DNA of 64,000 nucleotides from Minisyncoccota bacterium (GTDB lineage: Bacteria; Patescibacteriota; Minisyncoccia; Phycocordibacterales; UBA2100): positions 22,280 through 86,279 of the forward strand of contig JAYWCB010000005.1 in assembly GCA_043780835.1 (NCBI GenBank), in the 5' to 3' direction. Both the position numbers and the translations under genes were made by a program. The notes beneath the pieces were generated by a model. It worked only from the letters and a program-made list of their open reading frames with translations. It did not search any database and was not told where the DNA came from. This document shows positions 10,234 to 64,000 of the stretch, in pieces (position 1 is the first letter of the stretch; each line of letters begins with the position of its first letter).

Positions 10234-12948
10234 TTGATTTTTAATCGTATTGGCGCTATGTCAGCATTCAGTTTCCACAAGAAAGGTTTTGCATTTTCAT
10301 CCTTGCAAACACTCGGCACTGCATTCGTTGCTCTTATTCTTTTTGGGTTCGCGATGATGCTTGTTTTACGCGCGGATCATAGTTTTGCATTACGTATTGG
10401 AGGCACCGGCGGAGCAGCGGGGCTTTTCTTGGCACATGCTGATGGTGGTGATGGCGGTGGAGGCGGCGACTCAGGCGGCGGCGGTGACTCCGGTGGTGGC
10501 GGCGGCGCTGGTGATGGAGGTGGCGGTGGCGGCGGCGGCGCTGGTGGAGGCGACTCAGGCGGCGGCGGTGACTCAGGCGGCGGCGGCGCAGGCGGTGGCG
10601 ATTCTGGCGGCGGCGGTGACTCCGGCGGAGGCGGCGGAAGTTCCGGTGACGGTGGTGGCAGCTCCGGCGATGGAGGAGGAGGCGGAGGAGGCGGTGGCGA
10701 TGGAGGAGGCGGTGGCTGCACATCAAACTGCACACCACCACCTGTCGCAGTTTCCTGTGCGATCACCGCTAATCCGACGCAGGTGCAATCGGGCGGTTCA
10801 ACCACACTCACGTGGACATCCAGCGGCGCAACATCTGCTGCGCTCTCCGGAATTGGCAGCGTGACGGTAAGCGGGTCACGCACGGTCGCGAACATTACTT
10901 CGAATCGTACGTTCGTACTTACGGTCGCAGGTCCGGGCGGTACAGCAACCTGCCAAACGGCGGTCACTGTTACGGTACCCCCACCTTCGTGCACACTCTC
11001 TGCAAATCCCACAACAATTGAAAACACCGGATTCTCCACGCTCTCGTGGTCATCATCAAACGGTGCGTCCGCTACACTCACCACGATCGGTTCAGTTCCG
11101 CTCACAGGTTCCGCAATAGTTACTCCTGCGGTTACAACCACATATACACTCACGGTCCTCGGGCAAAACGGACAAACAGTCACGTGCCAAACCATTGTTA
11201 CGGTGCGACCAGTACCGAATGCGCCGAGCTGCACACTCTCTGCAAATCCATCGTCCATTCAAAGCGGAGGCTCAACGGTCTTGAATTGGAGTTCTAGTAA
11301 TGCAGTTTCTGCATCGTTCAATCAAGGCATCGGATCGGTTGGAGTATCGGGGAGCCGTACAGAAAGTGCTATCACTTCAAATCGCACCTATGTGCTCACC
11401 GTCACCGGTTCAAACAGACAAACTGCTACATGCGAGGCGCCGGTAACCGTGACCACACCGAGCGCACCGAGCTGCACCATCTATGCAAATCCGACTGATG
11501 TGCAGAGCGGTGGCTCTTCTACACTCACCTGGACTTCAACCAATGGAACTTCAGCAACCATCAATCAGGGAATCGGATCAGTCTCACTGAACGGCTCATA
11601 TACAGTTTCAAACATCACGCAGAATAAAACATTCGTACTCACCGTCACCGGATCAAACGGTCAAACAGTGAATTGCGAAACACGTGTGGTTGTAACCCAA
11701 ATTCCAAATCCACCGGCATGCACGCTCACCGCGAATCCGACGCAGGTGCAATCGGGCGGTTCCACGAGTCTGGTCTGGACTTCCACCAACGCATCGAGCG
11801 CATCGTTCGATAACGGCATCGGCAGCGTGGGTGTAAATGGTTCGTATTCAGTCTCGAACATAACGTCAAATCGAACCTACACACTCACCGTCATGGGTTC
11901 CAACGGTCAGACTGCAACGTGTCAGACATCCATCGTCGTGACACAGATTCCAAGCGCACCGAGCTGCACGCTCAGTGCAAATCCGAACAACGTAAATTAC
12001 GGTGGCTCATCCACGCTCACCTGGTCGTCGAACAATGCGATTTCCGCGATGCTCGATAACGGAATCGGATCGGTCGGAGTAAACGGTTCGTACGTTGTTT
12101 CGAATGTCACATCAAATCGCACCTACTCGTTGACGGTCACCGGCTCGAACGGACAAACGGCAACATGTCAGGCGCCGATTGTGGTGCAACAGCAGAATGT
12201 AACGCCGAGCTGCACGATTTCTGCATCGCCGTATTCGATTACACAAGGTCAGTCAGTAACGCTCTACTGGTCTTCTACAAACGCATCGTCTGCATTCATT
12301 AATCCGAATGTCGGTACGGTGGGAACGGCAGGATCAATGCAGGTATTCCCGCAAGGCAACAGCACGTACACGCTCACGGTAATGGGAACCAACGGTCAGA
12401 CCGTGACGTGCCAAACATCGGTGGTCGTGCAAAACATTGTGAACCAAGTTCCGTACTGCACCATCTATGCAAACCCGACATCCGTGCAGCGTGGCCAGAG
12501 TGCGATGATCACGTGGACCTCGCAGAATGCACAAAGTGCACAACTCTCGAGTGTCGGATCAGTGGGAGTAAACGGATCGATGAATGTGACGCCGTATCAG
12601 CCAACCACGTATACGCTCACGGTGTGGAGCGCAACCGGTCAACAGGCAACATGCAGCGCATCCATCCAAATGAATCAGCCGCCGTACTTCCCGCCACCGA
12701 CGTATTACCCACCACAACCGCCCATCTACTACCCACCACAACCACCAACGATCTATCCTCCGATTCAGTATTACCCTCCGAACATTCCGATTTCGTACAT
12801 CCCGTACACGGGACAGGGAAGTCCGATCGGTAACATCGTGCTCTTCGGTCTCATCGTTGCGGCATCACTCAGCGGCGCCTATCTCTTGCTCTACTCACGC
12901 GGCGGAGCTCGCGAAATGCTCGCGCAAGCTGGACTGCTTCGCGCCTAA
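10234..12948 (+). CDS. Large cell-surface protein: signal peptide, Gly/Asp/Ser-rich region, eight tandem Cys-bracketed beta-sandwich-like domains, Pro/Tyr-rich stalk, and an IPYTG-TM-SRGGA C-terminal sorting signal
   Basis: Repeats of the form CTLSANP..QSGGST.L.W.S.NA.SA...GIGSV...GS..V..ITSNRTY.LTV.G.NGQTATC. The C-terminus reads IPYTGQGSPIGNIVLFGLIVAASLSGAYLLLYSRGGA. The listed start is TTG; the ATG at 10258 is an alternative. Confidence 0.8.
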   Translation: MIFNRIGAMSAFSFHKKGFAFSSLQTLGTAFVALILFGFAMMLVLRADHSFALRIGGTGGAAGLFLAHADGGDGGGGGDSGGGGDSGGGGGAGDGGGGGGGGAGGGDSGGGGDSGGGGAGGGDSGGGGDSGGGGGSSGDGGGSSGDGGGGGGGGGDGGGGGCTSNCTPPPVAVSCAITANPTQVQSGGSTTLTWTSSGATSAALSGIGSVTVSGSRTVANITSNRTFVLTVAGPGGTATCQTAVTVTVPPPSCTLSANPTTIENTGFSTLSWSSSNGASATLTTIGSVPLTGSAIVTPAVTTTYTLTVLGQNGQTVTCQTIVTVRPVPNAPSCTLSANPSSIQSGGSTVLNWSSSNAVSASFNQGIGSVGVSGSRTESAITSNRTYVLTVTGSNRQTATCEAPVTVTTPSAPSCTIYANPTDVQSGGSSTLTWTSTNGTSATINQGIGSVSLNGSYTVSNITQNKTFVLTVTGSNGQTVNCETRVVVTQIPNPPACTLTANPTQVQSGGSTSLVWTSTNASSASFDNGIGSVGVNGSYSVSNITSNRTYTLTVMGSNGQTATCQTSIVVTQIPSAPSCTLSANPNNVNYGGSSTLTWSSNNAISAMLDNGIGSVGVNGSYVVSNVTSNRTYSLTVTGSNGQTATCQAPIVVQQQNVTPSCTISASPYSITQGQSVTLYWSSTNASSAFINPNVGTVGTAGSMQVFPQGNSTYTLTVMGTNGQTVTCQTSVVVQNIVNQVPYCTIYANPTSVQRGQSAMITWTSQNAQSAQLSSVGSVGVNGSMNVTPYQPTTYTLTVWSATGQQATCSASIQMNQPPYFPPPTYYPPQPPIYYPPQPPTIYPPIQYYPPNIPISYIPYTGQGSPIGNIVLFGLIVAASLSGAYLLLYSRGGAREMLAQAGLLRA
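10438..10716 (+). repeat. Tandem degenerate GGNGGNGAYTCN-type DNA repeats encoding a roughly 93-aa Gly/Asp/Ser tract
   Basis: Repeated ggcggcggtgactcaggcggcggc units. The antisense ORF is poly-Pro. Confidence 0.7.
10756..12678 (+). repeat. Eight tandem coding repeats of about 240 nt (80-aa domains)
   Basis: Period of about 240 nt. Units 1 and 5 share an identical 29-nt stretch, aatccgacgcaggtgcaatcgggcggttc, at 10771 and 11744. Confidence 0.7.
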
Positions 12949-12968
12949 GTACCACACTCGTTCAGAGC

Positions 12969-12994
12969 CTGTGCAAGGTGTCACCTTGCACAGA
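12969..12994. repeat. 26-nt perfect palindrome ctgtgcaaggtg-t-caccttgcacag-a, copy 1 (intergenic, 21 nt after the surface-protein stop)
   Basis: Read directly. An identical copy lies at 63284-63309. Confidence 0.85.
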
Positions 12995-13019
12995 CATAAT
13001 CAGGGTCTCTCGAATGGAC

Positions 13020-13048
13020 TTGACAAATGTGTCGTAATGGTCTATAAT
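13020..13048 (+). promoter_or_regulatory. Consensus promoter TTGACA-17-TATAAT for the sortase gene; the ATG is 6 nt downstream (leaderless)
   Basis: ttgacaaatgtgtcgtaatggtctataat, then accgct, then ATG at 13055. Confidence 0.65.
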
Positions 13049-13054
13049 ACCGCT

Positions 13055-13762
13055 ATGAATACGGGTTCCAATCGAGATAATCGCCCACACAAACCACCGT
13101 TTGCCGTTTACTTTTCGGCGACGATTATTTTGTTTGTGCTTTCACTTTCTGTGGCTGATTCTCTCGGTCTCGTACCGGATTACATCGATGGTACGGAATC
13201 TGAGCATGTTGCAGTGCAGACAACAGCGAGCGACAATCTTCCAGTTTCAGATTTGCCTGAGCTTGGTCAAACACAATCGGCGGCTATCGATGAGACACCA
13301 GCTGCATCGCCAGCATCAAAAAACGCAAAACCGATCTCCATCATCATTCCGTCAATCGGCATGAATCTTCCCGTTCAAAACCCGAACACCCGCGATCTCG
13401 GTGTGCTCGATACGTTGTTGCAACACGGCCCAGCACGCTACGTAGATTCGGCTCACCTTGGTGAGCGCGGCAATGTGATTATTTTTGCGCACTCTTCGCA
13501 TCTGCCGGTCGTGCACAATCAAATGTACAAAGCATTCAACCGTGTGCCGGAACTTACGCAGGGCGACACTATTACTGTCGTTGGTGACGACGGACAGAAA
13601 TATCTGTATAGCGTAACCTCTGTTCGCAAAGCGGATGTGTCGGACGCAACCATCGATCTCTCACCGCGTGTCGGCACAAAGCTTACGCTCGTGACGTGCG
13701 ACACGCTTACGGGTAAAACCGCGCGCTTTATTCTTGAAGCCGACTTTATCGGAACTATCTAA
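13055..13762 (+). CDS. Sortase (transpeptidase), membrane-anchored
   Basis: N-terminal TM helix. IFAHS (His), TLVTC (catalytic Cys) and TARF (Arg) align with SrtA AGH / TLITC / R. The start was trimmed to the leaderless ATG. Confidence 0.85.
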   Translation: MNTGSNRDNRPHKPPFAVYFSATIILFVLSLSVADSLGLVPDYIDGTESEHVAVQTTASDNLPVSDLPELGQTQSAAIDETPAASPASKNAKPISIIIPSIGMNLPVQNPNTRDLGVLDTLLQHGPARYVDSAHLGERGNVIIFAHSSHLPVVHNQMYKAFNRVPELTQGDTITVVGDDGQKYLYSVTSVRKADVSDATIDLSPRVGTKLTLVTCDTLTGKTARFILEADFIGTI

Positions 13763-22086: not shown

Positions 22087-23568
22087 ATGAACTCATTCAA
22101 AACGTTCAGTGTAAATAGCTCTTTGGCCGTGACAGTTGCTCTTTTGATAGCGTGTGCGTCATTTGGCATCTCATCGACTGTAGCTAACGCTGCGGATATT
22201 GGTGAGTTCGGCGACTTTGGAGGCGCTTCCGGCGGCTACTACGGTGGTCAGGAATTTGCTGCTAATAATTATTATGGTGGTCAGGAGTTCGCAGCTGACA
22301 ACTATTACGGTGGCCAAGAGTTTTCCAGTAATGGCTACTTCGGTGGTCAGGAGTTCTCAAACAATGGTGACTACTTCGGCGGAATGGAATTCGCAAACAA
22401 AGGCGACTACTATGGCGGAATGGAGTTTTCTAACTCTGGCACGTCGCTAACGACCGATACATATGACGTATATGAGGCACTCGATACCTATGCAGCACAA
22501 AGCTATGGTTCAACTGGTTCATTCGGTGGTGGTTCATTCGGTGGCGGTTCAACAGGAGGATATTCCTCTGGCGGACGCTCTGGCGGATCATCCTTCGGTG
22601 GTTACTCGACTCCGAGCTTTAGTTCATCCGGCGGGTGCACCACGTGCCACTCCCAGACTCCGAATTATCCGGCACCGGTGTGCATAACGTGCAATTACCC
22701 GGTCCCAACACCAGTTCCTCATCCGGTTCCGACATGCACCACATGCGGCGGATCGAATGTAACGAACACGAACATCAAGACCACAAACACGTACACTGAC
22801 AACTCGATCAACGGCAGCTTCAACACAAATGTGCACGGTGATGGCAATGTTGTCGGCGGCGGTTACCAGGGCGTTGCAGTTGCAACACTTGCTCCGGTTG
22901 TTCCGCAGCATCCGATCGTGTATCAGCAGCAGATTGCAGCTCCGTACTGTGTGATTAATCTCACCAATGCCGGCGCATACAATGCACAGGCAACACTCGT
23001 GTGGTCGTCAAGCAATGCGCAGAATGCATACATTTCGCAGGTTGGTGCAGTTGCACCGAACGGTCAGCGATTTGTAACGGGTTACACAAACCAGACGTAC
23101 TCTCTTACAGTTACCGGTCAGGGCGGTACCTACACCTGCAACACGCAGCCTTGGGCGCCAACGTATGTTGCGCCAACACCGATTAACCCGAGCGTTTCGC
23201 TCACGCAGATTCCGTACACCGGCCTCGCACTCTCACCGTTTGCACAGGCGATGTATTGGCTCTCGCTCATGTCAGTAGCTGCGGCAGGTGGATACTTGCT
23301 CGTCTACTACAAGGGAGGAGCACTCGCGTTCGCTGGTGCAGCGCTGAGCCGCCGACAGAATCACATCGTTGTATCTGAAACGTCTGAACAGGATACGACC
23401 GAAGTTGAAGCTCCGGAAACAGAAAATGAAGGGGAAACAGAACCGCAGGTCAGTCCTGTGAATATGCGCACCTTTCTTCCAACAATGGCAGAAACTCAGA
23501 CACGTGATGCGATGCAAATGATCCGAAATGCCGCAGGTGTTCCGCAGATCATCATCAGCCGCGCCTAG
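22087..23568 (+). CDS. Surface protein with six YYGGQEF repeats, Gly/Ser-rich and Cys-containing segments, one beta-sandwich-like domain related to the 904-aa protein, an IPYTG-TM-YKGGA sorting signal, and an acidic C-terminal tail
   Basis: Signal peptide. LTQIPYTGLALSPFAQAMYWLSLMSVAAAGGYLLVYYKGGA. Domain LVWSSSNAQNAYISQVGAV...YSLTVTGQGGTYTC. Confidence 0.7.
   Translation: MNSFKTFSVNSSLAVTVALLIACASFGISSTVANAADIGEFGDFGGASGGYYGGQEFAANNYYGGQEFAADNYYGGQEFSSNGYFGGQEFSNNGDYFGGMEFANKGDYYGGMEFSNSGTSLTTDTYDVYEALDTYAAQSYGSTGSFGGGSFGGGSTGGYSSGGRSGGSSFGGYSTPSFSSSGGCTTCHSQTPNYPAPVCITCNYPVPTPVPHPVPTCTTCGGSNVTNTNIKTTNTYTDNSINGSFNTNVHGDGNVVGGGYQGVAVATLAPVVPQHPIVYQQQIAAPYCVINLTNAGAYNAQATLVWSSSNAQNAYISQVGAVAPNGQRFVTGYTNQTYSLTVTGQGGTYTCNTQPWAPTYVAPTPINPSVSLTQIPYTGLALSPFAQAMYWLSLMSVAAAGGYLLVYYKGGALAFAGAALSRRQNHIVVSETSEQDTTEVEAPETENEGETEPQVSPVNMRTFLPTMAETQTRDAMQMIRNAAGVPQIIISRA
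22237..22437 (+). repeat. Six tandem 33-36 nt coding repeats (YYGGQEF-x-N-x)
   Basis: Protein-level repeats with diverged codons. Confidence 0.6.
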
Positions 23569-34331: not shown

Positions 34332-36539
34332 GTGTATTTGAAATCGATCGAGCTGGCAGGGTTTAAATCGTTCGGAAAAAAGTCCGAACTGGTTTTTACA
34401 TCGACTATTGCCTCGATTGTTGGTCCGAACGGCTCAGGCAAATCCAATGTGGCAGAAGCGTTTCGCTTTGTCCTCGGCGAGCAGTCAATGAAAAGCATGC
34501 GCTCGAAAAAGGGTGAGGATCTCATTTGGGGCGGCTCACCAACATTGGGTCGCGCAAACCGCGCCGGAGTAAAAGTTATTTTTGATAATTCCACGCGATT
34601 GCTCGATATCGATTTCAACGAGGTCGTGCTCGAGCGAATCGTGTATCGAGACGGCCAGAACGAGTACCTGATGAACGGTACTGCGGTGCGCTTGAAAGAC
34701 GTTATTCGCCTGCTCGCGGGTGCGAACATTGGCGGATCGGGATACCAGATTATTTCGCAGGGCGAAGCGGATCGAATTTTAAATGCGTCGCCCAAAGAAC
34801 GTCGCGAAATGGTGGAAGATGCGCTCGGCCTGAAACTGTACCAACACAAGAAAGCCGAGTCCGAACGCAAGCTCGATGAAACCGGTATAAATATTGATAA
34901 GACCAAATCGCTACGTCGCGAAATTGCACCGCATTTGAATTTCTTACGTTTGCAGGTGGAAAAGATCGAAAAGGCACGGGAAATGAAGGAAGATTTAGCC
35001 GCAAAGTTGGCCGATTATCTCTCACGGGAGTACGCGTATCTTACTCAAGAAGATGCACGGCTTCTGGATGACGCACGAGCGCACGAGCATGAATTAAAAA
35101 CGCTTACCGAGCGTCTACGTGAAGCGGGGACTAAATCGGGGCGCGGCGGGGATGTAGCTTCGCAGGAATTACAGGCTCGTGTGAGCGAGTTACAGTCGCG
35201 ACTTTCTGAGACACGCCGTCGAAGAGAAGAGATTGCGCGCGAACTTGGTCGTGCCGAGGGCACACTTGAAGCGACAAATGTAACGGTAGAAGCAATTGTG
35301 CCGGTTCCGCATGTGCGGCAATTTGTGCATGAGGTCGATGATACGCTCTCCAATGCAGAACGAGCGGGTGATGTATCGGCTATGCGCGAGCTTGTATCAA
35401 ATGTGCGCGGACGAATTCGGGCGTTTGTTGACGGGCTCGCGGGAACTGCTCCGGAAACAAACAAAGAAGTGCAGCAACAGGTGGAGCGCCTCACCGTACA
35501 ATTGAAAGACATTGAAGCCGAAGAGGCGCGTCTTGCGACAGACATTGAAATGGCGCGCGCCGGCATTGCACAAAGCCGCGAAGCATCATTTGCCGCAGAG
35601 CGGGAATCGGTTGAATTGCAGTCGCAAGTGCGTGAGGTACGCACGATGCTCGATTCCGCCAACGCCGCACGCTCACAGCTCGCACACGTGCGGCAGCGGT
35701 TCGAAGAAGAGGTGCGTGAAGGCATTGCACTCATTGGTGCGGCGGTCCACGCGTGGGACAAAAATGAAATTCCTGAAGGCGCGCTTTCCGAAGACCGATC
35801 CATACAGGAAAAGCGCCGTCGCGATGTGGAGCGACTCAAGATAAAAATCGAAGAGAGCGGTATCGGCAACGGCGACGCCATCGTCAAAGAATTTACACAT
35901 ACAAAGGAGCGAGATGAATTTTTGACTCGCGAACTCATTGATTTGGAAAAGTCTGAGCACTCGTTGCGCGACATCATCGCCGATCTGGAGAAAACCATCG
36001 ACCTACGCTTCAACGAAGGCCTGAAAGACATCAACGTGGCTCTGAACTCCTTCTTCGCAAAGCTCTTCAACGGCGGGGAAGCGAAGTTTATGGTCGAGCA
36101 GTCCCGCCGCGCATCAAGGCGACGCCTTGATGCAGAGGATGACGACGGGTTGGAGGAAAGCCTCCTGGAAGACGAGGAGTTATATGCGGGACTCACTGTA
36201 GCGGTGCATTTGCCGCGCAAAAAAGTGCATGGCCTCGAAGTCCTTTCCGGGGGCGAGCGGGCACTGACTTCGATTGCAATGATTTTTGCGATGTCACAGG
36301 TGAATCCCCCGCCTTTTTTGATTTTAGACGAAACCGACGCCGCACTCGACGAGGCAAATTCCAAGCGCTACGCCGATATGATCCGCGAGCTCGGCGCAAA
36401 GTCACAGCTTATTGTGATCACCCACAATCGCGCCACGATGGCAGCAGCAGGGGAATTGTATGGCGTGACTATGGGAAGTGACGGTGTGTCCAAACTTTTG
36501 TCTGTGAAATTCGAAGAGGCTACCAAGGTAGCAAAGTAG
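34332..36539 (+). CDS. smc: SMC-family chromosome segregation ATPase, short form (735 aa, no obvious hinge)
   Basis: Walker A GPNGSGKSN, coiled coil, signature LSGGERALTSIA, and Walker B ILDETDAALD. Confidence 0.75.
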   Translation: MYLKSIELAGFKSFGKKSELVFTSTIASIVGPNGSGKSNVAEAFRFVLGEQSMKSMRSKKGEDLIWGGSPTLGRANRAGVKVIFDNSTRLLDIDFNEVVLERIVYRDGQNEYLMNGTAVRLKDVIRLLAGANIGGSGYQIISQGEADRILNASPKERREMVEDALGLKLYQHKKAESERKLDETGINIDKTKSLRREIAPHLNFLRLQVEKIEKAREMKEDLAAKLADYLSREYAYLTQEDARLLDDARAHEHELKTLTERLREAGTKSGRGGDVASQELQARVSELQSRLSETRRRREEIARELGRAEGTLEATNVTVEAIVPVPHVRQFVHEVDDTLSNAERAGDVSAMRELVSNVRGRIRAFVDGLAGTAPETNKEVQQQVERLTVQLKDIEAEEARLATDIEMARAGIAQSREASFAAERESVELQSQVREVRTMLDSANAARSQLAHVRQRFEEEVREGIALIGAAVHAWDKNEIPEGALSEDRSIQEKRRRDVERLKIKIEESGIGNGDAIVKEFTHTKERDEFLTRELIDLEKSEHSLRDIIADLEKTIDLRFNEGLKDINVALNSFFAKLFNGGEAKFMVEQSRRASRRRLDAEDDDGLEESLLEDEELYAGLTVAVHLPRKKVHGLEVLSGGERALTSIAMIFAMSQVNPPPFLILDETDAALDEANSKRYADMIRELGAKSQLIVITHNRATMAAAGELYGVTMGSDGVSKLLSVKFEEATKVAK

Positions 36540-38581: not shown

Positions 38582-39274
38582 ATGATGCATTTTCATGTTG
38601 TCAGTTTGTTTCCCGAAGCTATCGAGCCGTATCTGAAGAGATCGATTTTGGGACGCGCTATCGAAGAAAAGAAAATAAAGGTCTCGTACTATGATCCCAA
38701 GGATTTTAGTCTTCCGGCCCGTGGTAAAAAAGCACGTGCGCAGGATATGCGGGTTGATCGTCGGCCATACGGCGGTGGTCCCGGTATGGTCTTACGACCT
38801 GATCCGATTTTAAAAGCGGTAGAAAAGGCACGCGGCAAAAAGAAGAAGGTGATGATAATCTTCTTCGCTACGGATGGAGAACAATTTACAGAAGAAATGG
38901 CAAAACGGATGGCGAATCCTAAAGGCGACGCCTTTAGGAATATTATATTCATCTGCGGAAGATACGAAGGCATTGATGCGCGCGTGCAGAAGATTTTGAA
39001 AGCAAAAAAAGTCACGGTCGGTCCGTATGTAGTCACGGGAGGGGAATTGCCGGCGGCAATAATGATCGATGTGATCGCGCGATTTATTCCGGGGGTGTTG
39101 GGTAAAGCCGAATCGTTGGAGGCGTCTCGCGTCTCAAGTCCTGAAGTGTATACGCGTCCCGAAGTGTTGGAGTGGAAGAAAAAGAAATACCGTGTGCCGA
39201 AAGTGCTTTTGGGCGGCAACCACGCAGAAATGGACGCGTGGAAGGCCTCTATTCGTTCAAAAAAGTCAAAGTGA
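38582..39274 (+). CDS. trmD: tRNA (guanine37-N1)-methyltransferase
   Basis: SPOUT motifs DRRPYGGGPGMVL and ICGRYEGIDARV. Confidence 0.88.
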   Translation: MMHFHVVSLFPEAIEPYLKRSILGRAIEEKKIKVSYYDPKDFSLPARGKKARAQDMRVDRRPYGGGPGMVLRPDPILKAVEKARGKKKKVMIIFFATDGEQFTEEMAKRMANPKGDAFRNIIFICGRYEGIDARVQKILKAKKVTVGPYVVTGGELPAAIMIDVIARFIPGVLGKAESLEASRVSSPEVYTRPEVLEWKKKKYRVPKVLLGGNHAEMDAWKASIRSKKSK

Positions 39275-53107: not shown

Positions 53108-53114
53108 AAGAAAA

Positions 53115-53130
53115 AGGACGGTCCTTTTTC
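53115..53130 (+). terminator. Intrinsic terminator ggac-g-gtcc plus T5, directly after tadA
   Basis: aaaaaggacggtcctttttcc. Confidence 0.55.
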
Positions 53131-53147: not shown

Positions 53148-53172
53148 CGGCCGGAAGCAGTGCTTCCGGCCG
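53148..53172. terminator. 12-bp perfect hairpin cggccggaagca/tgcttccggccg, bidirectional
   Basis: Read directly, between convergent genes. Confidence 0.5.
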
Positions 53173-53721: not shown

Positions 53722-53832
53722 GGCTTTCCCCCGTACTTTTATTGACCTGCGGGGCATCCTACGCCTCACTCTTACAAAAGCAAACGACCGGAATCCGCGA
53801 GGGGATTCCGGTCGTGAATGATCTACTCGAAG

Positions 53833-54874: not shown

Positions 54875-55034
54875 CCGGGTATCCTATCAAAACAAAACGG
54901 CCTGGACGCTGACAGTTCTTTTGTGGGATGTACTGAGGTTGGACCTCAGTACATAGCAAAACGGGAGTAAGGTTCGGCCGGATGTGAAAAAAGGACGGTC
55001 CTTTGGAAAAGGGCCGTCCTTTCGGAATCGCGAA

Positions 55035-55439
55035 ATGGTCGGATTAGGGAGGATTTGGTCGTGCTACCATTTTGTGATGGGATTGGAATTCAGACATGAG
55101 AAACCAAAGCAGCCGACCCCGGAAATGATGCCGGAAAAAGTGGAGAAAATTGCGTCGGCTGCACTCAAAATAAAAGGCGAGTTATATGAGGGTCCGACAC
55201 ATGGTGATGCGTGGAATTCAGCGCTTATGAAGCATCCCGAATTTGATACCGGAAATGATCTTGAAATTGACGAAGGTTTTCTCACTTCACTCGGACGATT
55301 TGTTACCCGGGAAGAGGGTAAGGAAATTGCCGAAAAATCAGCGCAACTCCGAAAGCCCATTCATGACGGGCGAAATTGGCTCGACTCAAATGATGTCGTT
55401 GGTTTGGGCGACACATCGAGCCATTCCTCCACTTTATAG
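55035..55439 (+). CDS. Hypothetical protein; start uncertain (55035 or 55077)
   Basis: The listed 5' extension reads through two hairpins and was trimmed. Confidence 0.35.
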   Translation: MVGLGRIWSCYHFVMGLEFRHEKPKQPTPEMMPEKVEKIASAALKIKGELYEGPTHGDAWNSALMKHPEFDTGNDLEIDEGFLTSLGRFVTREEGKEIAEKSAQLRKPIHDGRNWLDSNDVVGLGDTSSHSSTL

Positions 55440-55979: not shown

Positions 55980-56037
55980 CATAAGAAAGTGGCCGGAATC
56001 GAAAGATTCCGGCCACTATATTTTCCATTCACGGCGC

Positions 56038-56985: not shown

Positions 56986-57129
56986 TCGCGCCCCTTTTTC
57001 ATTTCTAGTGAGAGTCGTGGCCCGTGGGGCCGTGGAGTATCCTAACCGATATTGGTGAGGATAAAAGGTATTCGGCCGGTATCGCTGTGGATACCGGCCG
57101 AAAGAAGAACATAGAAGAACGAAGAATAG

Positions 57130-62931: not shown

Positions 62932-64000
62932 CTATTGTACCGTAGGCCACTTCGCAATCATGAGCTGATCGGAGGACGTGTGGGGAAGATGCTGCCAGAT
63001 GGTTTCTGTTACAAACGGCATGAACGGATGCAGGAGGCGAAGTGAAATCGAGAGGATTTCCGTGAGCGCTCGTTCGCGCGATTTTTTCGCGGCTTCGTCT
63101 TCGCTCCGAAATATTGGTTTGGATGCTTCGAGAATTTCGGCAGCAAAACGATCCCAGACATAGTGATACACCTCATCCGCGGCAAGATCGAGGCGGAATC
63201 CATCGATGTTTGCTGTTACGCCCGCTGCGATGCGCTCCGCTTCGCGGATAAGTTCTGCATCGGCTTCCAGCAGCGTTACCTCACTGTGCAAGGTGTCACC
63301 TTGCACAGAGTCAGTCTGGTTCTCGAGCACGAAGCGTGTGATGTTCCACAACTTATTCGCAAAATTCTTGAATCCGCGAATACGATCTTCCGACAGTTTA
63401 AGATCGTTGCCCATTTGCGCACCAAATATGAGTGAGAGGCGAGTCGCATCGGCACCGTATTTTTGTGTCATGTCGAGCGGATCAATGATATTGCCGAGAC
63501 TTTTCGACATCTTGCGGCCCTGTCCGTCGCGCACGAGCCCGTGCAAGTACACGTGCTTAAACGGTACTTGCCCGAGCAAAAATCCGCTCATTAAAATCAT
63601 GCGTGCGACCCAAAAGAAGATAATGTCGTATCCGGTTTCGAGGACCGCTGTCGGGTGATAGGTCTGTAAATCTGCGGTGTTGTCGGGCCACCCCAAAGTA
63701 GAGAAGCTCCACAAGCCTGACGAGAACCACGTGTCGAGTACGTCGGGGTCTTGTTCCCACCCGTCACCGGGAGACTCGATTTGCACTTTTGTGTCGCCGT
63801 CTTTGAACCATGCAGGGATGCGATGCCCAAACCAAATTTGTCGCGAAATATTCCAGTCACGCAAATTATCGATCCAATGGAAATAAATCTTTTCAAAGCG
63901 ATCCGGCAATATTTTGATAGTGCCCTGATCAACCGATTTGCGCATGATCTCTTTGAGTGTGGTCGTTGAACCGCTCTCAATACCCGTTATTTCAGAATGG
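62932..64000 (-). CDS. valS: Valine--tRNA ligase, C-terminal part; the gene continues beyond the window end
   Basis: KMSKSLGNIIDP motif and an anticodon-binding region. It contains the in-frame 26-nt palindrome. Confidence 0.85.
   Translation of the reverse strand, partial: HSEITGIESGSTTTLKEIMRKSVDQGTIKILPDRFEKIYFHWIDNLRDWNISRQIWFGHRIPAWFKDGDTKVQIESPGDGWEQDPDVLDTWFSSGLWSFSTLGWPDNTADLQTYHPTAVLETGYDIIFFWVARMILMSGFLLGQVPFKHVYLHGLVRDGQGRKMSKSLGNIIDPLDMTQKYGADATRLSLIFGAQMGNDLKLSEDRIRGFKNFANKLWNITRFVLENQTDSVQGDTLHSEVTLLEADAELIREAERIAAGVTANIDGFRLDLAADEVYHYVWDRFAAEILEASKPIFRSEDEAAKKSRERALTEILSISLRLLHPFMPFVTETIWQHLPHTSSDQLMIAKWPTVQ
63284..63309. repeat. 26-nt perfect palindrome, copy 2, in-frame inside valS (encodes SVQGDTLHS)
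   Basis: Identical to 12969-12994. Confidence 0.85.

Follow-up and report, generated by a model that had tools for sequence, protein, structure and literature searches.

A repeated perfect palindrome in a Patescibacteria genome as a candidate REP-like hairpin element

The window analyzed here is a 64,000-nt stretch of a 205,858-nt NCBI contig (JAYWCB010000005.1) from the genome of a Minisyncoccota bacterium (GCA_043780835.1), and has a GC content of 52%. It holds two identical copies of a 26-nt palindrome, designated family A, of which copy 1 lies between a gene for a repeat-rich surface protein and the promoter of a sortase gene, and copy 2 lies in frame within valS, the gene for valyl-tRNA synthetase (ValRS). 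The repeated palindrome was interpreted, with a probability of roughly 70%, as a hairpin element similar to repetitive extragenic palindromic (REP) sequences and mobilized by a Y1 transposase resembling the REP-associated tyrosine transposases (RAYT). The named closest homologues of the ValRS and TrmD proteins belong to the Kaiserbacteria, Paceibacteria or Patescibacteria group, and the window was accordingly assigned to an ultra-small bacterium of the Patescibacteria. Genomes of the Patescibacteria, or Candidate Phyla Radiation (CPR), are about 1 Mb in size, streamlined, and usually called poor in repeats and mobile DNA.

Two copies of the palindrome in the window

The 26-mer (CTGTGCAAGGTGTCACCTTGCACAGA) was found at both sites with no mismatches. 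A third copy was not detected in the window at up to three mismatches, and 100 dinucleotide-preserving shuffles of the window yielded no matches. The first-pass annotation of this DNA had reported the two 26-mers as a 12-1-12 palindrome and considered chance recurrence very unlikely; sequence and coordinates were confirmed, and the shuffles agree with that judgment. Bases 1-25 form the perfect palindrome, base 26 (A) is common to the copies but outside it, and the bases flanking the 26-mer differ between the two sites. The foot of the hairpin reads CTGTGC...GCACAG in the window and CCGTGC...GCACGG in three metagenome contigs (L001, L002, and L006). Folded as single-stranded DNA, the element gives an 11-bp hairpin with a 3-nt loop, with a free energy of −12.2 kcal/mol (z −5.2) for copy 1 and −12.5 kcal/mol (z −3.9) for copy 2. 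By direct reading of the sequence, stop codons are absent from five of its six reading phases. The identity of the two 26-mers points to a recent duplication and was counted in support of the interpretation above.

Logan contigs of 18 and 48.5 kb from this genome were retrieved, adding 10 kb to the window for a total of 74 kb of same-genome sequence. No further family A copies were present in the extra 10 kb. One of these contigs (L007, run SRR23617225) was 100% identical to the window across 11,924 nt, valS copy included, and an assembly artefact was therefore excluded.

Copy 1 starts 20 nt past the TAA stop codon (12946-12948) of the surface-protein gene, ends 26 nt ahead of the −35 box of a perfect TTGACA-17-TATAAT promoter, and has co-directional genes on either side. 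This position, just 3′ of an open reading frame (ORF), is a typical REP site. The position and the stable hairpin would also fit a plain terminator of the surface-protein gene, with the valS copy as coincidence or artefact, but the sequence after the stem (ACATAATCAG) carries no T-run, so copy 1 is unlike an intrinsic terminator, and a terminator scan of positions 12700-13300 returned 0 terminator-like sites. Since chance identity over 26 nt is excluded and the independent assembly has the same valS sequence, this explanation is scarcely credible; as a full account it is refuted by the shuffles, the missing T-run, and the L007 identity, and a plain terminator leaves the valS copy unaccounted for. 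Copy 1 may have a terminator-like or RNA-stabilizing side effect, and its hairpin, formed in RNA or DNA, may be active in the interval separating the surface-protein gene from the sortase promoter.

The full valS gene (L007:4921-7164) encodes a protein of 747 aa, and the translation SVQGDTLHS given in the first-pass annotation was reproduced as residues 623-631. In an alignment of the 40 best ValRS matches, the check which that annotation had proposed, the 9-aa segment was missing from all 39 of the closest homologues (74-86% identity). After the conserved NITRFVLEN, SVQGDT..LHS is unique to the window protein, whereas homologues of 79-86% identity read ENT[AS]ELDP.ATL. In DNA comparisons, the palindrome is missing from the two nearest relatives (L017 and L018, approximately 80% identical), and the window is longer by a net 18 nt at this site. 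The loop is also shorter in the solved Thermus thermophilus structure (1GAX), and its length varies among homologues. Judged from these alignments, the evidence indicates that the valS segment is an insertion.

Coordinates of the features discussed here and below are collected in Table 1. The surface protein gave weak Pfam matches (PKD-like and BiPBP_C) and its gene contains tandem domain repeats of 243-246 nt; a long Gly/Asp/Ser low-complexity stretch and seven tandem domains of approximately 82 aa, each with conserved Cys residues (10440-10720, 11139-12641), were also observed. Downstream, the sortase ATG lies only 6 nt past the −10 box (13020-13057), a spacing that suggests a leaderless sortase mRNA. 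Elsewhere in the window, an ORF at 22087-23568 carries tandem 33-36-nt repeats (22233-22440) encoding a YYGGQEF-like motif.

Table 1. Coordinates of palindromes and associated genes (positions with an L prefix are in contigs other than the window)
Feature	Position	Strand	Basis or sequence
Family A palindrome, intergenic copy 1	12969..12994	.	CTGTGCAAGGTG-T-CACCTTGCACAG plus shared A
Family A palindrome, intragenic copy 2 in valS	63284..63309	. (valS minus strand)	In frame, SVQGDTLHS
valS, 3′ part, running off the window end	62932..64000	-	Translation without upstream stop; Pfam tRNA-synt_1 and Anticodon_1
Repeat-rich surface-protein gene, 904 aa	10234..12948	+	ORF and translation; 3′ end precedes copy 1
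Sigma-70-type promoter (13020-13048) and sortase gene (ATG 13055 to 13762)	13020..13762	+	Promoter scan 12/12; Pfam Sortase E = 2.8e-18
Family B palindrome in trmD	38917..38939	. (trmD plus strand)	TCCTAAAGGCG-A-CGCCTTTAGGA, perfect 11-1-11, in frame, NPKGDAFRN
Family B palindrome in smc	36111..36133	. (smc plus strand)	GCATCAAGGCG-A-CGCCTTGATGC, perfect 11-1-11, in frame, ASRRRLDA
In-gene Y1 palindrome	L008:2261-2287		
In-gene Y1 palindrome	L010:10240-10266		
In-gene Y1 palindrome	L020:10179-10203		
In-gene Y1 palindrome	L029:10184-10198		
In-gene Y1 palindrome	L042:2083-2113		
Palindrome sequence			CTGTGCAAGGTGNCACCTTGCACAG
13-nt cores			AAGGTGNCACCTT, AAGGCGNCGCCTT

The palindrome core in other genomes and around Y1 genes

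A 21-nt core (GTGCAAGGTG-N-CACCTTGCAC) was used to search other genomes. There were no matches in 185,579 species genomes (one genome per species) and none in viral contigs, and 241 million metagenome records yielded six contigs, with 37-46% GC and unrelated flanks. In one of these (L002, the same locus as L008 and L009), three full copies and one partial copy surround a 230-aa ORF assigned to Pfam Y1_Tnp (PF01797, IS200-like; 31.3 bits against a cutoff of 23). An inverted doublet adjoins the Y1 gene upstream and a single copy adjoins it downstream, and another lies in frame within it (TVQGVTLHG). L004 contains another Y1-like ORF, with just 32% identity to the L002 protein, and the palindrome is located at its 3′ end; in L020 the same 13-nt apex is found both inside and downstream of a member of the Y1 family. 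Other copies are apart from Y1 genes: across the tdk stop codon between convergent genes (L003), in frame in uvrC (L005, CARCHLAH), and, as a variant, in frame in the WecG glycosyltransferase (L011, TVQGPTLHG). The uvrC core is directly followed by a second hairpin, GTCCCGCC-GAAG-GCGGGAC, and the two form a tandem hairpin insert in a repair gene (L005:60-130). The first-pass annotation had allowed for coincidence if only two copies existed and the ValRS segment were conserved in homologues; as it turned out, more copies exist elsewhere and the homologues are without the peptide.

These locations bear on a second alternative, the shared operator for a dimeric regulator that the first-pass annotation had also listed; the regulator would bind the palindrome as double-stranded DNA and here act on the sortase promoter. 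Perfect dyad symmetry, the short distance from copy 1 to a consensus promoter, and the AT-rich, TATA-like sequence adjoining several metagenome copies would all suit an operator. Yet copy 2 lies in the middle of valS, related copies lie within WecG, UvrC, trmD, smc, and the Y1 gene as well as across the tdk stop, neighboring genes differ in every contig, and the position relative to promoters is not constant. The TATA-like flanks themselves belong to a longer palindrome, and paired changes in both arms distinguish two copies within one locus, a pattern that base-pairing fits better than half-site recognition does. With so many copies inside coding sequence, the operator was judged very unlikely.

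More than 5,597 homologues, approximately 228 aa in length, were found for the L002 Y1 protein (P0121); the few with a source name are from Patescibacteria, as the family as a whole apparently mostly is. The family consensus includes NHFH, an HUH (histidine-hydrophobic-histidine) motif, together with LFQG and YIHRNP, the last agreeing with the class 2 signature Y---NP. By motifs and length compared with Table 1 of PMC6006769, and without a phylogeny, the family appears to fit best in class 2, closest to subclass 2.1 (TIRYT-like, for tyrosine transposases associated with terminal inverted repeats). The Y1 gene is single-copy and syntenic, adjoining a peptidase M16 gene in eight contigs. An orthologue with 77% identity (P0122, L010-L015) has the palindrome GTGCAAGGTC-G-GACCTTGCAC upstream of and inside the gene, the innermost pair being changed on both sides, and a dispersed copy at a distance of 9 kb. 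A further Y1 paralogue, 2 kb from P0122, has a palindrome of its own (CAAGGCT-N-AGCCTTG), again upstream of and inside the gene. The apical 2 bp of the cognate hairpins thus vary between genomes and between two neighboring paralogues in one contig.

Eighty loci with members of the Y1 family were fetched from named genomes of Woese-, Gottesman-, Levy-, Davies-, Chisholm-, Shapiro- and Saccharibacteria; 72 of the loci had a recognizable gene, for a total of 74 genes. Counts were made of perfect odd palindromes whose arms reached 7 nt or more, against a background of 0.17 per kb. There were 26 palindromes within 200 nt upstream of the Y1 genes and 22 within 200 nt downstream, where approximately 2.5 were expected per zone, an enrichment of about 10-fold on each side. 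Another 22 were internal to the Y1 genes and formed two clusters, one +110 to +155 nt and one +415 to +465 nt from the YHxYNRG motif. The palindrome cores were genome-specific (AAGGTGACACCTT, AGGGTCAGACCCT, AAGGTTCAACCTT, AAGGCCAGGCCTT, AAGGACAGTCCTT, and others), and cognate palindromes were dispersed beyond the Y1 gene in six contigs (L011, L026, L029, L035, L067, and L086), some of them in frame in large ORFs (L029:3042 and L029:15940). Compensatory double changes were observed between copies flanking one Y1 gene in L042, L048, L063, and L089. Because the collected palindromes were chosen for being perfect, a formal covariation test on them would be circular. The cognate palindromes are enriched around the Y1 family and covary with it, and it is the pairing rather than the sequence that is conserved. 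Such an arrangement, with the hairpin of a Y1 gene on its flanks and also dispersed over the genome, is the architecture of a REPtron.

Within Y1 genes of the subfamily closest to P0121, the gene's own palindrome was found in frame at the peptide T[LV][QK]Gx[TS][FL][KQH]G. Conservation of the peptide TLQGxTFKG alone was considered as the cause of the internal palindrome and was rejected for this close subfamily, in which pairing was seen at 12-13 of 13 positions, as compared with 6-9 expected from redrawn synonymous codons. The internal palindrome was absent in distant members of the family and is hence not universal.

The genome specificity of the cores also bears on the third alternative named in the first-pass annotation, a DNA-uptake signal, restriction-modification site, or other recognition motif. 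Many Patescibacteria are predicted to be naturally competent, and conservation of the core over several unrelated contigs would agree with such a role. Known uptake sequences, however, are short and non-palindromic and occur approximately once per kb, as compared with two copies in 64 kb here; the core went unmatched among the species genomes and was recovered in only six metagenome contigs, and it varies by genome and tracks the Y1 paralogue. On the density and the genome-specific sequence, this alternative was set aside as highly improbable.

A truncated Y1/RAYT-like remnant (ELYEIRILAYVVMPNHWHLLLYP, then a stop) was observed approximately 600 nt upstream of trmD in a sister genome (GCA_040384425.1, L103:9118-9387). 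The window has no counterpart of it at the position upstream of trmD, and no intact Y1 gene was found near trmD in the relatives L104 and L105. The remnant shows that the lineage has, or had, Y1 genes.

Further hairpins in the window and the proposed mode of dispersal

A second palindrome, family B, has the core AAGGCG-A-CGCCTT and occurs twice in the window with unlike outer arms, both times in an essential gene. The trmD copy shares the codon phase of the valS copy (NPKGDAFRN and VQGDTLH, respectively). Among the 39 closest TrmD homologues, 37 have no insert and read LSKKKDIIF; the other two (P0242 and P0263) have an orthologous palindrome at the same site. The net length change at the trmD site is +18 nt. 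Compared with the window, the copy in L100 (AATCATAAAGGCGACGCCTTTATGATT) has a compensatory C>A / G>T pair, and the copy in L102 has a single mismatch. The smc copy is situated in a hypervariable charged loop, where three relatives (L103, L104, and L105) have non-palindromic sequence of nearly equal length (net +3 nt). An insertion in smc is therefore ambiguous. A near-identical palindrome with the same outer arm as the smc copy, ATCAAGGGG-T-CGCCTTGAT, is intergenic after rpsP in L105, and on this basis it was argued that family B is dispersed. Palindromes of the form AAGG-N5-CCTT numbered seven in the window against 0.58 expected; none were found in the sister contigs L017, L018, L103, and L104 (approximately 65 kb in total), and two were found in L105.

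Several other hairpins were recorded. A third family, (G)AAAAAGGAC-G-GTCCTTTTT(C), is present at 53110-53130, 54991-55003, and 55009-55021 of the window and at L105:8335-8353. One copy lies 7 nt past an ORF stop and an adjacent pair lies upstream of the gene at 55035-55439; in the relative GCA_046594495.1 the family is also found 3′ of trmD, a different locus, so that it is terminator-like yet dispersed. Four intergenic hairpins with a GCCGGAA / TTCCGGC stem lie within 4 kb (53148-53172, 53784-53815, 55988-56017, and 57071-57102), and a 14-1-14 palindrome resembling them is present in a sister genome (L018:13347-13375). These may represent another REP-like or terminator family. In two TrmD homologues (P0248 and P0249), a different loop of TrmD contains another lineage-specific insert (IKPRKSEQGRPLLKPE), which, from its protein sequence, could be a further palindrome-derived insertion. 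Rfam at gathering thresholds gave no matches anywhere in the window.

With regard to mechanism, the palindrome, when single-stranded, would fold into the 11-bp hairpin described above, and hairpins of this type serve as substrates for the RAYT/TnpA(REP) class of HUH/Y1 tyrosine transposases. The Y1 enzyme would cut and rejoin single-stranded DNA at the hairpin foot and so copy the hairpin to new sites. A copy landing behind a gene would persist as a 3′-flanking REP, as proposed for copy 1, and a copy landing within a gene would survive only with the frame kept and in a tolerant surface loop, as proposed for copy 2 with its approximately nine added residues. The trmD copy of family B would follow the same pattern as the valS copy. 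We infer from these comparisons that the palindrome is mobile and that a Y1 enzyme of this genome mobilizes it, presumably by a single-stranded cut-and-paste or copy mechanism analogous to that of TnpA-REP and IS608. The intragenic copies are most simply viewed as passengers tolerated in frame-keeping loops, and the copies may have a function at present.

A number of observations weigh against this interpretation. The Y1 family scored 32-42 bits against the NCBIfam RAYT model (NF047646), its best and sole match, for which the cutoff is 80, and its profile reached solved IS200-family transposases weakly (ISDra2 TnpA, 2xm3, E = 0.012, the alignment taking in the HUH and Tyr regions). A tblastn search with the L002 Y1 protein recovered no Y1 gene in the window, and neither did the family hidden Markov model run on six-frame ORFs of the window, L007, and L019; with no Y1 gene in the 74 kb, the cognate enzyme of this genome was not seen. 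Copy number is low, with only two family A copies in the same 74 kb. Net length changes at the three intragenic sites (+18, +18, and +3 nt) are unequal to the element length and so do not fit a clean insertion, and at smc a replacement or an in-situ change may have taken place rather than an insertion. No target-site duplication or within-population empty-site polymorphism was seen, in comparisons whose nearest relatives, at only approximately 80% DNA identity, are too far removed to place insertion boundaries exactly. In comparison with REP sequences, no GTAG, GTGG, or CGTC tag is present at the hairpin foot, the cognate palindromes of other genomes also being without a tag, and the palindrome is perfect, with a 1-nt center and no bulge, whereas REP stems are imperfect and bulged.

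Several of these points would be accommodated by an origin without a transposase, in which a quasi-palindrome is perfected by arm-to-arm template switching in replication and spread among loci or strains by recombination or gene conversion. Template-switch correction of quasi-palindromes yields compensatory pairs, and the pair at trmD would be such a product. The unequal net length changes, the smc site of nearly equal length in relatives with its similar peptide (RA[GS]RKDIDE), the family B copies that are both perfect despite unlike outer arms, and the lack of a Y1 gene in the 74 kb of sequence from this genome would also fit. On its own, however, this process cannot account for identical 26-mers at unrelated loci, for the same 21-nt core in unrelated genomes, or for the enrichment of palindromes on both Y1 flanks, and it was considered unlikely as the origin of the repeats. 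It may act alongside transposition as maintenance, also in the ambiguous smc case. Perfect self-complementarity could be kept either by selection on the hairpin or by such template switching.

A wider proposal, put forward tentatively and thought doubtful, is that of a REPtron-type system throughout the Patescibacteria lineage, in which more than 5,000 RAYT-like Y1 proteins are paired with perfect, untagged, genome-specific hairpins that routinely colonize loops of essential proteins and are kept perfect by compensatory change. Proteins with colonized surface loops would, under this proposal, include ValRS, TrmD, SMC, UvrC, WecG, and the Y1 protein. Were it true, the hairpins would have a function or undergo active correction in minimal genomes, as opposed to being inert debris.

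If transposase-mobilized REP-like hairpins are indeed the correct interpretation, REP/RAYT-type repeats would be active or recently active in Patescibacteria genomes. Such repeats would become small peptide insertions in essential enzymes, explaining some of the lineage-specific "loop insertions" of CPR proteins, and annotators and structural modellers would be warned that these insertions stem from DNA-level events and not from protein adaptation. The Y1 enzymes and their hairpins also make up a large, diverse collection of pairs in which substrate reading by HUH transposases can be studied. REP biology as generally understood would be unchanged.

Comparison with known systems

REP sequences and REPINs (paired REP sequences forming a hairpin) were reportedly linked to RAYT (TnpA-REP) tyrosine transposases, in arrangements known as REPtrons, by Nunvar in 2010, Bertels and Rainey in 2011, and Ton-Hoang in 2012. 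The family A palindrome shares with them its short length (20-40 nt) and hairpin-forming sequence; its copies, two in the window, would likewise be dispersed, and copy 1 has a site 3′ of an ORF between co-directional genes. Also alike, in other contigs, are the cognate palindrome on both sides of a single-copy syntenic Y1 gene, the separate palindrome of each paralogue, and the in-frame copies within other genes and within the Y1 gene. By location, copy 1 is extragenic, 20 nt 3′ of a stop codon, and copy 2 is intragenic; published REPs are typically just 3′ of ORFs and are also known inside genes, including tRNA-synthetase and repair genes (PMC3733652), and in-frame REP insertions have been described in tnpA(REP) genes of subclass 2.4 (PMC6006769; for the classification of REP and RAYT see also PMC5581495). 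Besides the missing tag and the perfect stem, the present system differs in that the window copies occur as singlets and not as REPIN doublets, their density is low, a Patescibacteria genome of approximately 1 Mb is the host, and the associated Y1 family is under the curated RAYT threshold, its cognate gene being unseen in the 74 kb of this genome. Literature searches joining RAYT/REP with Patescibacteria/CPR turned up no account of REP-type repeats in Patescibacteria; the one paper containing both terms concerned an archaeal RAYT gene and not REPs in CPR.

TIRYT or subclass 2.1 TnpA-Y1 genes are flanked by terminal inverted repeats (TIRs), some of them self-complementary (Di Nocera 2013, PMC3733652; Quentin 2018, PMC6006769). 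The Patescibacteria Y1 family resembles them in its NHFH, LFQG, and YIHRNP motifs and its length of approximately 228 aa, a likeness by motif comparison only. As with the genes described here, self-complementary repeats flank some TIRYT genes, and in that group these repeats also make up dispersed families of moderate abundance (PMC3733652). Subclass 2.1 was reported without REP-like hairpins, however, and its repeat consensus (GGGG[AT][CG]A[CG]) is absent here.

The IS200/IS605 TnpA transposases are related through the HUH/Y1 fold family (PF01797, and the weak profile match to ISDra2 TnpA, 2xm3) and the recognition of DNA hairpins. In contrast to these insertion sequences, which are multi-copy, the Y1 genes here are single-copy and syntenic, have no tnpB partner, and their hairpins disperse without the gene.

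The first-pass annotation had proposed a small palindromic mobile element able to insert in frame, as Rickettsia palindromic elements (RPEs) do. The element itself agrees with the homologues that do not contain the segment, with the core flanking Y1 genes, and with the in-frame copies in WecG, UvrC, TrmD, and the Y1 protein, but the RPE did not hold up as the analogue. RPEs are similar in being in-frame palindromic repeats in functional, often essential proteins of a reduced genome, where they add a short peptide in tolerant loops; most of their families, however, are 100-150 nt long as compared with 25-26 nt here, and they have no sequence relationship to the palindrome and no link to a flanked Y1 gene. 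Two RPE families (RPE-4 and RPE-6) do carry the CGTC tag (PMC3733652). The 20-40-nt REP/RAYT (or TIR/TIRYT) system is favored as the better analogue, and the palindrome is in that sense a known kind of element, of which intragenic copies have already been documented.

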